From: Verrucomicrobiota bacterium
Lineage (GTDB): Bacteria; Verrucomicrobiota; Verrucomicrobiia; Limisphaerales; CANJXF01
DNA: 49,047 nt
Assembly (NCBI GenBank): GCA_038214755.1
Contig: JBBQRQ010000029.1
Span: 1-49,047, forward strand
Direction of reading: 5' to 3'
Shown: piece by piece, positions 2,211 through 7,091 of the stretch
Numbering within the stretch: the first letter of the stretch is position 1
How the letters are laid out: every line of letters begins with the position of its first letter
Position numbers and translations under genes: made by a program
The notes under the pieces: model-generated
Databases searched by the model: none
What the model was told of the DNA's origin: nothing
The model's input: the letters and a program-made list of their open reading frames with translations, nothing else

Positions 2211-5200
2211 ATGAGTAAATCTTCAAATCGAATTGAGCGGCTGGAAAAATTGTTGCGCGAACGGATCATCATCATCGACGGAGCGATGGGCACGATGATC
2301 CAGCAACGAAATTTATCGGAAAAAGATTTTCGCGGAGAACGCTGGGCCGAGTGGAAAGGGAAAGACCTCAAAGGGAACAACGACCTCCTCAACCTCACTC
2401 AGCCGAAAATCATCGAAGAAATTCATCGGCAATATCTCGAAGCGGGCGCGGATATCGTTGAGACGAACACTTTCAACTCTCAGGCAATTTCGCTCGCGGA
2501 TTATGGATTGGAGTCGCTCGCCTACGAATTGGCGCGCGCCGGAGCGGAGTGCGCGCGTCGCGCTGCTGATGCCGTTGAGAAAGGAAATCCCGACCGCATT
2601 TGTTTCGTCGCGGGGGCGATCGGGCCGACCACGAAGACCACTTCCATCTCGACGGACGTGAACAATCCGGCGGCGCGCGGCACGACTTACGACGAATTAG
2701 TGACCGCATATGCAGAACAAATTCGCGGCCTCCTCGATGGCGGCGCGGACATTCTTCTGGTCGAAACCATTTTCGACACGCTGAATGCGAAGGCCGCGTT
2801 TTTCGCGGTGGAAAAAGTTTTTGAGGAGCGCGGAATTGAAACGGTTCCATTCCAACCATCCCTTGCTCAATCGCCAAAGGGCAATCGCCAAAGGGCAATC
2901 GCCAATCGCCAATCCCAAATCCCCATCATGGCGTCGGTCACGTTCATCCAAGCGGGAAGCAATCGTGGCGTGACGGGGCAAACGGTCGAAGCCTTTTGGA
3001 ATTCCATTTCGCACGTGCCGCTATTGAGCGTCGGAATGAACTGCGCGCTCGGGCCAAAAGAAATGCGGCCGCTCATCGAGGAGCTTTCAAAAATCGCGCC
3101 TATTCCGGTGAGTTGTTATCCGAACGCCGGTTTGCCCAATCCACTTTTGCCGACAGGTTTTCCTGAGACGCCCGAATCGCTCGCGCCTCAATTGGAAGAT
3201 TGGGCGAAAAACGGTTGGCTGAATTTAGTGGGCGGTTGCTGTGGCACGACGCCGGAACATATCAAAATGATCGCCGACGCCGTGCGAGATTTGCCGCCGC
3301 GCGTGCCGCCGATCGTGGAACCTTTTCTACGGCTCAGCGGCTTGGACGCGCTCACCGTGACGCCGCAAACCAATTTTGTGAACGTGGGCGAGCGAACGAA
3401 CGTCACTGGCTCGCCGAAGTTCTCCAAACTGATTCTCGAAGGAAAGTATGAGGAAGCGCTTACGGTCGCGAAGCAACAAGTGGTCAACGGCGCGCAAATC
3501 ATCGACGTGAACATGGACGAAGGGATGCTTGATGGCGTCAAGGCGATGACCCATTTTCTGAATCTCATCGCGAGTGAGCCGGACATTTCTCGCGTGCCGA
3601 TCATGGTTGATTCCTCGAAATGGTCGGTAATCGAGGCGGGGCTGAAATGCGTTCAAGGCAAAGGCATCGTCAATTCGATTTCGTTAAAAGAAGGCGAGGC
3701 GAAATTTATCGAGCAGGCAAAACTCGTTCGACGCTACGGCGCTGCCGTCGTGGTGATGGCATTTGATGAACGCGGCCAGGCGGATTCATTCGAGCGCAAA
3801 ATAGAAGTGTGCCAACACGCCTACGAAATTCTCACGCAGCGCGTCGGGTTCCCGCCAGAAGATATTATTTTCGATCCGAACATTCTCACCGTCGCAACCG
3901 GCATGGATGAACACAACAATTACGCGGTGGATTTCATTCGCGCGACGAAGTGGATCAAAGAAAATCTCCCACGCGCAAAAGTCAGCGGCGGCATCAGCAA
4001 TATTTCATTTTCGTTTCGAGGCAACAATGTCGTGCGCGAAGCGATGCACAGCGCATTTCTTTATCATGCCATTCAGGCCGGATTGGACATGGGCATCGTC
4101 AACGCAGGCATGCTCGAAGTTTATGCGGAAATTCCAAAAGACCTTCTCGAATTGGTCGAGGACGTTTTGCTGAACCGCAAACCCGACGCGACGGAACGCC
4201 TGGTGAAATTTGCCGAGTCCGTGAAGAAAAAAGACAAGGCGGAAGTTGTCGCGGACGAGTGGCGCAGCGGTTCGGTGGAAGAACGTCTCAGTCACGCCCT
4301 CGTGAAAGGAGTGGTTGATTTCATCGAGGTGGACATTGAAGAGGCGCGACAAAAATACGAGCGCCCGCTGATGGTGATCGAAGGGCCGCTCATGGCCGGG
4401 ATGAATGTCGTCGGAGATTTATTCGGTTCCGGGAAAATGTTTTTGCCGCAAGTGGTCAAGTCCGCCCGCGTGATGAAAAAGGCCGTGGCGTATCTTCTTC
4501 CGTTCATGGAAGCCGAGAAGGCGCGAACGCGGCGCATTCGCGAGTTGCGTTTGCTGGCGCGGAAATTGCACGGGGAAACGGTCACACTCATCGAAGGTTT
4601 CACTTACACACCTCACCCCGAACTGACCGAGAAAGAACGTCTGATGGAACAAAAATTCGCCGCCGAATTGGCCGCCGATCTCGAAGGGGCGGCCAGACGT
4701 TACGAGGCTGAATTTGCCAACGTGTTTGACCGCAACAACGCGCAGGAACTTAGCCCGGATTACGCGGCCAGCCGCGAAAGCCGCCAGCGATGGAGCGTGG
4801 CGACTCTTGGTCCTGCCGGGGGATTTATCGACTGGCTGTATCAAAGGAGGATTGAACAATTGCCGCCAGAAAGTTTGATTGCATTCAACGCGGGAGGGCA
4901 GGGCAGCGGCAAGACCACCGCGACCCGGCAGGCGGAGGTTGAGCGCGCCGCCAATATTTTGATGGATGGCACATTGCAGGATGAAGTGCGAAGCCGCCAG
5001 CATATCAAAGCTGCGCTCGAAAGGGGCCATGTGGCTCATATCCGGTTCGTTTATTGCCCGTGGGACAAAGCGGTGGTCAATATCCTGCGCCGAGCCGCGA
5101 AGGAAACCGGCCGTATCGTTCCATTGTCCCGCGCGGTCGGAGGGCATTTTCGATCGGCGAGAAATGTCCTCTCGCTCGACCAAAATAAGCCGTCGAACAA

Positions 5201-7091
5201 AGGAAGGTTTGAACTTTTTGTCTTCGACAATACGGACTTTGCCAATCCTAAATTGCAGAACTTGGAGTGGCTTCGTAAACACCTGCACAAGTCCACTAAA
5301 ATTCTCCTTGAAACCGGGCGCACAGTAGCAGAAAATTATCTCCATGAAAACAGCGACGATCCAGACTTCAATTCCGAGGAAATTCGATACGGATTCTTCC
5401 AAACGACCGAGCATCGAGGAACGGATTCACCAGCTCAACGAAGCGACGTTGTTGGTTCTCCGACGAGCGGGATTAGCTCGCAAGCTGAAGGAAGAGCAGG
5501 AGCAGCAGGAGAAACTGGCCGCGACCTCCCGCTAATCGAAAGCGACAAAGCCGGACGCATCCTCCTTGCCACCGTCAAAGGCGACGTGCATGACATCGGC
5601 AAAAATATTGTAGGTGTCGTGCTCGCTTGTAATAACTACGAAGTCATAGATCTCGGCGTGATGGTTCCGTGCGAAAAAATTCTCCAGACCGCGCGCGAAC
5701 TGAATGTGGACATCATCGGCTTGAGCGGATTGATCACGCCCTCGCTGGACGAGATGGCGCACGTCGCCAAAGAAATGGAGCGGCAAGGTTTTAAAATTCC
5801 ATTGCTCATTGGCGGCGCGACGACAAGCAAAGCTCACACCGCCGTGAAAATTGCGCCGGGATATTCCGAGGCAGTGGTGCATGTGCTCGATGCCTCGCGC
5901 GCCGTGCCGATTGTGGGAAGCTTGATCAGCGGAGAGCAAAAACCCGCTTTCATCGCAACGATCCGAAATGAATATGATCGGCTCCGCTCGCAACACGCCG
6001 GACAAAAAACAAAACTTCTAAACCTCGAGGGCGCCCGAGCGAATGCGCCTCAATTAAAATACGACAATTTGCCGCGACCAGAATTCGTCGGTGTGCGAGC
6101 GCTGACCGATGTTTCGTTAAGCGCACTTCGCGAGTTCATTGATTGGTCGCCATTTTTTCACACGTGGGAATTGCGGGGACGTTATCCGGCAATTTTGCAG
6201 CATGAAAAATACGGCGAAGAAGCGCGCAAACTTTTTGCCGATGCGCAAAAACTCCTGGATCAAATCGTTGAGAAAAAACTTTTGCAACCGCGCGGCGTGT
6301 ATGGATTTTTTCCAGCCAATCGCGTCGGAGACGACGTGGAACTTTACGGCGAAGAATCGCGGACGAAAGCGCTGACGACTTTCCATTTCCTGCGCCAACA
6401 AATTGAAAAGCCAAAAGGACAATCCAATTATTGTCTTGCCGATTTCGTCGCGCCGAAAAGTAGAACAGACGTCTCGCCTGTCCAGGGAGGGGCAGGCGAG
6501 ACGCCCACCCTACTTTCAGATTATCTCGGCGCGTTTGCCGTTACGAGCGGCCACGGACTGAAGGAACTGACAGAAAAATTCAAAGCAGATCACGACGACT
6601 ACAACGCGATCATGGCTGAGGCGCTCGCTGATCGCCTGGCCGAGGCCTTCGCCGAATATTTGCACCAACGGGTTCGCCAAGAATGGGGTTTTGGCAAAAA
6701 CGAAAATTTTAAAGTCGAAGAGTTGCTCGAAGAAAAATATCGCGGCATTCGTCCGGCAGCCGGTTATCCCGCCTGCCCCGATCACACCGAGAAAAAAATT
6801 CTGTGGGAGCTTCTTCAGCCGGACAAAAATGCCGGCATTCAAATCACGGAAAACTTTGCCATGTGGCCGGGCAGCAGCGTAAGTGGGCTTTATTTCGCGC
6901 ATCCCGAATCAAAATATTTCGCGGTGGGCAAACTCGGACGCGACCAGATTCTCGATTATCATTTGCGCAAAGGAATGACGGTTCAGGAAGTGGAACGCTG
7001 GCTTGGACCGTATCTAAATTACGAACCCAATCAGAAAGAAAACGCGCCGACGGAGACCCGGAAAGCCTGTGCGTGTGGCCTATCCCACTGA
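2211..7091 (+). CDS. metH: Cobalamin-dependent methionine synthase with three in-frame insertions (1626 aa)
   Basis: [16 protein letters not shown] and GGCCGT (homocysteine domain); [11 protein letters not shown] (pterin domain); [14 protein letters not shown] (cap); [10 protein letters not shown] and [10 protein letters not shown] (B12-binding); [12 protein letters not shown] (activation domain). Confidence 0.97.
2868..2923. repeat. Heptamer tandem repeat (CAATCGC/CAAAGGG, 8 units) inside metH
   Basis: caatcgc caaaggg caatcgc caaaggg caatcgc caatcgc caatccc aaatccc, translated as [18 protein letters not shown]. Confidence 0.85.
4521..5546 (+). other. In-frame inserted P-loop NTPase/kinase domain (zeta-toxin-like) within metH, about aa 771-1112
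   Basis: Lies between LLPFMEAEK and [16 protein letters not shown]; Walker [10 protein letters not shown] (4893-4919), ILMDGTL, RRA..TGRIVP, FVFDNT. Confidence 0.8.
5344..5535 (+). CDS. Candidate 63-aa helical protein overlapping metH in the +1 frame (possible partner or antitoxin of the inserted domain)
   Basis: ATG start; amphipathic [37 protein letters not shown]; stops about 11 nt before MetH homology resumes. Confidence 0.4.
6457..6516. repeat. REPIN-like palindrome in frame in the metH activation domain
   Basis: aaaGTAGaacagacgtctcgcctgtcc ... gggcaggcgagacgcccaccCTACttt, 60 bp, translated as [20 protein letters not shown]. Confidence 0.8.

Follow-up and report, generated by a model that had tools for sequence, protein, structure and literature searches.

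A probable small gene nested in the +1 frame of metH, at the 3' end of a zeta-toxin-like kinase insert, in a Verrucomicrobiota bacterium

The stretch of DNA analysed here (hereafter the window) comprises 49,047 nucleotides (nt) of a Verrucomicrobiota genome (contig JBBQRQ010000029.1, assembly GCA_038214755.1) and carries metH (2211-7091, + strand), encoding a cobalamin-dependent methionine synthase of 1626 amino acids (aa) with Pfam matches to S-methyl_trans, Pterin_bind, B12-binding_2, Zeta_toxin, B12-binding, and Met_synt_B12. It is the sole cobalamin-dependent methionine synthase of the source genome (single PF02965 match genome-wide). Between its cap (B12-binding_2) and its Rossmann B12-binding domain, the enzyme contains an insert of ~340 aa (~4527-5549, +), the limits of which were set by the alignment against Escherichia coli MetH (PDB 1bmt), with breaks at query residues 109 and 451; according to both Pfam and the 1bmt alignment, the start of the Rossmann domain (5550-5850, +) is where the two enzymes are homologous again. 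The insert is present in one copy in the source genome. At its 3' end, a small open reading frame (ORF; 5344-5535, +) is found in the +1 frame of metH, starting with ATG, encoding 63 aa, and ending with TAA at 5533-5535, i.e., ~15 nt before the E. coli MetH homology resumes. An earlier reading made from the letters of the window alone (the sequence-only reading) had pointed out this ORF, its stop close to the right boundary of the insert, the low-complexity stretch that the MetH frame encodes over it, and the helical stretch encoded in the +1 frame, and had proposed that a toxin-like kinase and its partner had been embedded in metH; all of these features were recovered as quoted.

The insert contains a zeta-toxin-like P-loop kinase domain (4563-5405, +), corresponding to residues ~40-320 of the segment starting at 4446, for which the AlphaFold2 (AF2) predicted local distance difference test (pLDDT) was mostly >90 (overall pLDDT of the segment model 81). 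The profile PF06414 matched the insert at MetH residues 907-992 with 35.0 bits (cut-off 22.3; E-value 1.3e-8), a weak and partial match restricted to profile positions 89-176 of 199, and free-standing relatives of the insert reached 39.7-43.5 bits against the same profile. In Foldseek, the top six matches of the modelled insert were chains of Neisseria gonorrhoeae zeta_1 (E-values 1.5e-9 to 4.2e-8, TM score ~0.57, best 0.58), followed by PezT, zeta, and AvrRxo1. A profile of the free-standing relatives searched against solved structures gave zeta_1 as the only significant sequence match (E-value 3.2e-9), and the predicted fold of the insert is that of zeta toxins, closest to gonococcal zeta_1. 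The Walker A motif GGQGSGKT (4893-4916, +) includes G150, G151, G153, S154, G155, K156, and T157, all invariant across 34 sequences. In the same 34 embedded and free-standing sequences, GxxGSGKT, D174-G-T, R216, R223, R229, and H234 were without exception conserved. The conserved polar residues of the kinase domain would correspond to the catalytic residues of zeta, and the embedded kinase is apparently catalytically intact.

Homologues of the insert were collected by scanning one genome per species, which yielded 24 loci encoding it at 56-73% identity, nearly all labelled Verrucomicrobiota; in 23 of these, the MetH cap and B12 motifs flank the insert within a single open frame. Other searches added eight metH-embedded copies (L035, L036, L037, L059, L114, L178, L179, and L182), some of them only 49-51% identical. 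The distribution of the insert is patchy, as matches were obtained in 9 of 401 genomes of an even phylum sample, 5 of the 9 being metH-embedded. Carriers appear to include genomes of the Prosthecobacter, Pedosphaera, and Opitutaceae types. With the window included, 33 insert-bearing metH loci could be compared, and each of them has a start codon at the homologous site followed by an open +1 frame (33/33; 32 ATG and one GTG, the latter in L022), although L009 is cut by a contig end at the 3' end of the small ORF and the insert of L037 is partly deleted. Conservation of the ORF across homologous inserts, on which the sequence-only reading depended, is thus observed. The nested peptides are 53-76 aa long; M1, T35, L39, A42, G43, and R46 are invariant in their alignment, and the last five fall in a conserved helix (5413-5484, +; peptide residues 24-47) with the consensus LNEATLNALRxAGxAR. 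The +2 frame over the same stretch is full of stops. When the aligned loci were scanned in windows of 60 codons, the +1 frame was open in all 24 aligned sequences at 5340-5504 only, and elsewhere in 0-22 of them. The nested start takes its first two letters (AT; GT in L022) from a MetH codon that ends in T in 24/24 loci and encodes His, Asn, Tyr, or Arg, against a background share of 31% T-ending codons among the His, Asn, and Tyr codons of the same genes.

To determine the frame under selection, 24 sequences were aligned by codon. Variability peaked at MetH position 3 everywhere except at 5346-5525, where it peaked at MetH position 1, i.e., the wobble position of the +1 frame; within this stretch, diversities of 0.55/0.21/0.15 were obtained at MetH codon positions 1/2/3 of 5433-5468. 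Ratios of nonsynonymous to synonymous differences (pN/pS) were calculated by the simple Nei-Gojobori method, which is not an overlapping-gene model, over the 276 pairs of the 24 sequences with kinship ignored. In the MetH, +1, and +2 frames, respectively, these amounted to 0.25, 1.74, and 1.64 for the kinase core, 0.68, 0.63, and 1.21 for the first third of the ORF, and 1.40, 0.46, and 1.33 for the ORF core (5415-5504), where amino-acid identities of 0.35 (MetH frame) and 0.58 (+1 frame) were obtained. The pattern of change over this core is that of a protein in the +1 frame and of an out-of-frame reading in the MetH frame, so that the comparison of selection in both frames, run here as pN/pS, found constraint on the nested frame and not on the MetH frame. 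Two parts of the ORF can be distinguished on this basis. In the dual-constraint part (5344-5414, +), the last part of the kinase domain, read in the MetH frame, shares its DNA with the N-terminal third of the peptide, and both frames are constrained. Downstream of the kinase domain, the MetH frame encodes a low-complexity linker to the B12 domain (5406-5549, +), which is predicted to be disordered (AF2 pLDDT 30-44 at segment residues 321-368, directly after the confidently folded domain). The MetH frame over the ORF is nevertheless open in 24/24 sequences, compared with 22% on average when the peptide was reshuffled synonymously; together with the selection on the +1 frame, this means that both frames are maintained. 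The +1 frame would hence be kept for its sequence and the MetH frame kept open as a tether.

Relatives of the insert also exist outside metH. A protein search returned nine stand-alone homologous proteins (257-292 aa, 38-44% identity). Free-standing homologues were not found in genome contigs, either with a single-protein query or with a subsequent alignment query, and seven free-standing kinase loci were obtained from metagenomes (clade A). In 7/7 of these, a +1 ORF starts with ATG ~26-28 codons before the kinase stop and runs past it; where the locus is complete (six loci, L032 being truncated at a contig end), it does so for ~40 codons. The part that does not overlap the kinase gene (ERAxFFGQMAxESLSxAAR) shows diversities of 0.21/0.07/0.52 at codon positions 1/2/3, and because this codon pattern lies outside the overlap, the small ORF of clade A is regarded as a real gene. 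A second, more distant group within the phylum (clade B, L168-L171, ~30% identical to the insert) likewise has, in 4/4 loci, a +1 ORF that spans the kinase stop; its small ORFs share the C-terminal motif W...L..L..AL(S/A)G in four sequences, and the start region MKTTTQ of one of them, from ATGAAAAC, resembles the embedded MKTATIQ. In the free-standing copies, the small ORF starts 15-37 codons inside the 3' end of the kinase gene, and its ATG or GTG start is kept in 11/11 loci. Free-standing homologues thus carry a small +1 ORF at the same place as the insert of the window, in both clades. A same-strand small gene accordingly adjoins the zeta-like kinase in 33/33 embedded, 7/7 clade A, and 4/4 clade B loci.

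A phylogeny of 42 kinase domains was calculated with IQ-TREE and rooted at the midpoint for drawing only. All 31 metH copies included fell on one side of a branch with 97/100 support, clade A being their sister group and P0010, followed by clade B, branching outside. Provided that the root lies outside the metH group, this topology fits a single capture of a pre-existing two-gene module into metH. The proposal of the sequence-only reading that a toxin-like kinase/partner module is embedded in metH, leaving a dual-coding region, is accordingly supported by the free-standing two-gene loci, the single metH clade, and the pN/pS values.

The peptide itself was searched for relatives and for binding to the kinase. 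A peptide profile matched 26 proteins at an E-value of at most 1e-3 among 1.84 billion representatives, 24 of them being 35-87 aa long, and among the 22 matches retrieved one (P0019) was identical to the peptide of L059; since the profile matches database proteins, the nested ORF is evidently called by gene callers elsewhere. A degenerate DNA pattern of the motif produced mostly chance matches: 2 of the 80 loci taken from the matches listed were true by hidden Markov model (HMM), and both were metH-embedded. Five proteins of 52-87 aa from other metagenomes (P0038 and P0041-P0044) contain a similar motif, R(I/M)(D/E)ALN(E/K)AT(L/I)xALRxAG, with different tails; a scan of viral contigs with P0041 gave no match. 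For the kinase segment together with the peptide, a complex model reached a score of 0.82, the best of three controls scoring 0.00. Of 157 solved complexes, 116 attained the mark used for this score, as did 2 of 215 mismatched pairs, figures that apply only roughly since custom alignments were used. Model runs agreed in at least 95% of contacts, with a partner pLDDT of at least 68. The modelled interface involves peptide residues 24-60, chiefly the conserved helix, which contacts helix alpha1 behind the P-loop (residues 155-169) and alternate residues of the strands 144-146, 196-202, and 254-262 of the kinase. The complex model supports the predicted binding of the peptide to the kinase.

Taken together, we assign a probability of about 0.7 to the reading that 5344-5535 is a real nested gene, the partner of a zeta_1-type kinase, in a module that was captured once into metH, and that it is still translated and binds the embedded kinase. 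The ancestral module would have consisted of a zeta_1-type P-loop kinase gene and a gene for a small helical protein with its own ATG inside the 3' end of the kinase gene. An ancestor of several verrucomicrobial lineages may then have acquired the module in a single event, inserted into the linker that joins the cap and B12 domains of MetH, and with the loss of the kinase stop codon, translation of MetH would have crossed the partner gene in the other frame. The partner-gene stretch would since have served, in the MetH frame, as a flexible disordered tether constrained only to stay open. The partner would still be produced by internal initiation on the metH mRNA and bind the kinase domain in trans, its helix (...RxxxLNEATLxALRxAGxAR...) resting both against alpha1, which lies behind the P-loop, and against one side of the central sheet. 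We consider a neutralising or stabilising, i.e., antitoxin- or chaperone-like, role of the peptide the most likely one.

Several observations weigh against this reading. When the metH sequence was reshuffled synonymously with the MetH protein fixed, the +1 frame still remained open in 85% of cases on average, and the first 10 kb of the window contain 72 ORFs of at least 50 aa. Openness of the +1 frame was consequently rejected as stand-alone evidence; from one sequence the ORF is not beyond chance, and the case therefore rests on the comparison of homologues. These homologues are related by descent, so that the counts given above overstate their independence. Translation from the nested ATG is something that we infer from selection. 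As the sequence-only reading had stated, a scan of the window identified no Shine-Dalgarno core ahead of the nested ATG. This absence says little because a GGAG, GAGG, or AGGA core at -18 to -4 of the first ATG or GTG was present in only 3 of 30 long ORFs of the window (metH not being one of the three), by a crude scan in which some assumed starts may be wrong; the source organism seems to rely little on Shine-Dalgarno pairing. No family was found for the peptide in Pfam, NCBIfam, or PADLOC, no solved chain in a PDB profile search (best E-value 0.31), and nothing within the useful range in the ESM Atlas (best 0.75). The score of the complex model may owe something to memory of solved epsilon/zeta complexes. 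Alignments of embedded with free-standing peptides by hhalign were not significant (Prob 0.12, E-value 0.47; Prob 0.37, E-value 0.16), and because of this, the orthology of the two rests on position, frame, and start region. Finally, L037 has lost ~146 aa of the insert and with them the entire P-loop core, while the ORF and its LRRAG motif remain, a persistence that is unexpected if the peptide serves only the kinase in cis. Relaxed selection on the ORF after this deletion was considered and rejected: compared with its congener L036, L037 has 62-65% nucleotide identity in the ORF/linker stretch vs 87-95% in the flanks, but two congeners with intact inserts are equally divergent there, i.e., the stretch evolves much faster than its flanks in this genus. 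For that reason, nothing can be concluded on relaxed selection in L037.

The retention of ORF and motif in L037 would be accounted for if the small protein were real but did not act on the kinase, having instead taken on a new role after the capture, for example as a regulator of MetH or of methionine metabolism, or as a nucleic-acid binder of the helix-hairpin-helix kind. P0042 has a match to the C-terminal domain of the RNA polymerase alpha subunit, which is of the helix-hairpin-helix type, but it is weak and below the cut-off (E-value 0.0066), and P0038 and P0041-P0044 may be stand-alone small proteins. Against such a role stand the arrangement with a zeta-like kinase, which holds in three clades, and the complex model, in which the conserved helix forms the interface and which scores far above its controls; a DNA-binding function would moreover have to be assumed without any family-level match. 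We consider this alternative unlikely.

Programmed +1 ribosomal frameshifting could also lead into the +1 frame, in which case the helix would be a C-terminal extension of the kinase in a truncated MetH isoform. Such a cis link looks sterically possible, as the model places the helix beside alpha1 on the sheet, with residues 304-305, close to the C-terminus of the kinase, forming part of the interface. Many loci also have a +1 frame that is already open well before the ATG (by up to 295 codons). A frameshift would, however, need neither the start codon, which is kept in 33/33 embedded and 11/11 free-standing copies, nor the bias towards a T-ending MetH codon at this start. In 7 of 24 loci, the ATG is preceded by a +1 stop at a distance of 5-12 codons (the window, L002, L003, L008, L012, and L024, as well as L017 at 12 codons), and in L026 a +1 stop directly precedes it. 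Inspection by eye revealed no MetH-frame stop and no conserved slippery or stop-stimulated site, and the second +1 codon varies (AAA, AAC/AAT, ATT, or AGC). In metH, the product would furthermore be devoid of the B12 and activation domains. Internal initiation is favoured over frameshifting because of the conserved ATG and the nearby upstream +1 stops in several loci, and we judge frameshifting to be quite improbable.

A further alternative assumes no second gene at all, with the ORF and its apparent conservation as by-products of whatever constrains the MetH frame, the composition, or the RNA structure. The high share of reshuffles that stay open speaks for this, as does the occurrence of longer same-strand alternative-frame ORFs elsewhere in metH (3950-4318, +, 122 aa; 4966-5328, +, 120 aa). 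Those two ORFs, however, show no conservation or phase signal in the metH homologues. Within the nested ORF, the core looks noncoding in the MetH frame (1.40, identity 0.35) compared with the +1 frame (0.46, identity 0.58), and the change in wobble phase coincides exactly with the borders of the ORF; the free-standing small gene keeps its coding pattern (0.21/0.07/0.52) in a helix that lies outside any other gene. An absent second gene is accordingly given very little credence. That MetH itself is read in the +1 frame here by two compensating frameshifts, with the helix as the true linker, would agree with the +1 frame being the conserved one in the ORF core, but is least credible of all, since none of the +1 ORFs extends further than just inside the B12 domain, 24/24 sequences keep the MetH frame open against a mean of 22% in reshuffles, and to our knowledge two obligatory frameshifts in an essential enzyme are without precedent.

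Some further features were recorded. The free-standing modules of clade A are flanked by integrase, HerA-, JetD-, and HTH_36/DnaD_N-like genes; in L027 (3896-5068, -) and L028 (6-671, +; 940-1419, +; 2532-3785, -), these neighbours are a tyrosine integrase, a HerA-like ATPase, an HTH_36/DnaD_N protein, and a JetD-like protein, i.e., a mobile-element or defence-island setting. Zeta-like P-loop domains were also seen within very long open frames (2009-4309 aa) of other Verrucomicrobiota (L038, L041, L174, L175, and L181), which have no pair of MetH cap and B12 motifs. The MetH of the window has other lineage-specific extra stretches, namely a basic segment in the homocysteine domain (~aa 213-237), a stretch in the activation domain (~aa 1420-1440), and a C-terminal tail.

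Returning to the nested gene as a kinase partner, a more far-reaching version would see a toxin-antitoxin-like module inside the sole MetH of the organism, with an intact-looking kinase between cap and B12 domains, a neutralising partner translated from within metH, and a tether made from the out-of-frame partner gene; this we hold as a tentative and rather doubtful possibility. If true, kinase and partner would be made from one mRNA at a ratio set by internal initiation, and the arrangement could link a growth-arrest switch to the metabolism of methionine and B12, or render the fused allele self-stabilising. Well-supported same-strand nested genes of bacteria are few, and annotation pipelines drop them. 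In the present case, the comparative signal is unusually clean, with a flip of the wobble phase at the ORF borders across 24 genomes and a history that can be read from the free-standing copies. The locus also draws attention to an uncharacterised MetH architecture with a zeta-like kinase and to an unnamed family of small proteins that would partner zeta_1-type kinases. In a limited literature search, no description was found of a zeta-like domain in MetH or of a naturally occurring antitoxin-like gene inside the gene of an enzyme.

Among known systems, streptococcal epsilon/zeta and PezA/PezT share with the insert the zeta fold (3q8x, 2p5t, 1gvn) and PF06414, and in both, the kinase is neutralised through the binding of a small protein. 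The classical partners epsilon and PezA are encoded upstream of their kinase, unlike the downstream and overlapping partner found here, and a downstream order is otherwise seen only in avrRxo1:arc1. Epsilon is described as a three-helix bundle with an N-terminal helix that blocks the ATP site (PMC5923241). In sequence, the nested peptide shows no relation to epsilon, PezA, epsilon_1, or Arc1, as far as Pfam, NCBIfam, PADLOC, PDB chains, and the Arc1 motif are concerned.

The closest likeness is to N. gonorrhoeae zeta_1 (6EPG/6EPH; PMC5923241), the best fold match of the insert with ~271-280 aligned columns, in which the P-loop also comes late in the sequence. The zeta_1 subclass is characterised by this displaced P-loop and by epsilon_1, a non-globular polypeptide on the surface of zeta_1 (PMC5923241), which is similar in kind to the helix-on-surface binding predicted here. 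Unlike in epsilon_1/zeta_1, the gene for the partner of the metH kinase lies downstream and overlaps that of the kinase in the +1 frame, no similarity of the partner to any solved chain was detectable, and the kinase is an internal domain of MetH. No counterpart of the C-terminal OB domain reported for zeta_1 (PMC5923241) was seen in the insert, because Foldseek covers ~270-280 of ~395 zeta_1 residues and no folded domain follows the kinase in the model.

AvrRxo1:Arc1 (PMC4938570) resembles the metH insert in combining a zeta-fold kinase (4z8t, prob 1.00) with a small helical partner of 81-98 aa encoded directly downstream, an order called unusual among toxin-antitoxin systems in the same work. 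The Arc1 motif KExFD(x25-27)(Y/L)ExxYY was not detected by eye in the nested peptides, avrRxo1:arc1 is not embedded in another gene, and the part of the published account at hand (PMC4938570) reports no overlap between the two genes.

With other bacterial overlapping genes, as covered by the available parts of PMC4683798 and PMC8850804, the nested ORF has in common that two frames are used and that the alternative frame is under purifying selection. Most of those overlaps are antisense and young, whereas the ORF described here is on the same strand and would be the older frame, because it exists unoverlapped behind free-standing kinases. Overprinting would thus appear reversed at this locus, the nested gene being the older frame and the enzyme linker the newcomer. 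The nearest parallel in design is the synthetic entanglement of relE in ilvA (10.1101/2023.02.27.530340, as far as its accessible part describes it), which likewise places a toxin-antitoxin component in an alternative frame of an enzyme gene. In that engineered construct the toxin is embedded, and in the natural metH case it is the small partner; should the pair prove to be toxin and antitoxin, metH would represent a natural counterpart of synthetic gene entanglement.

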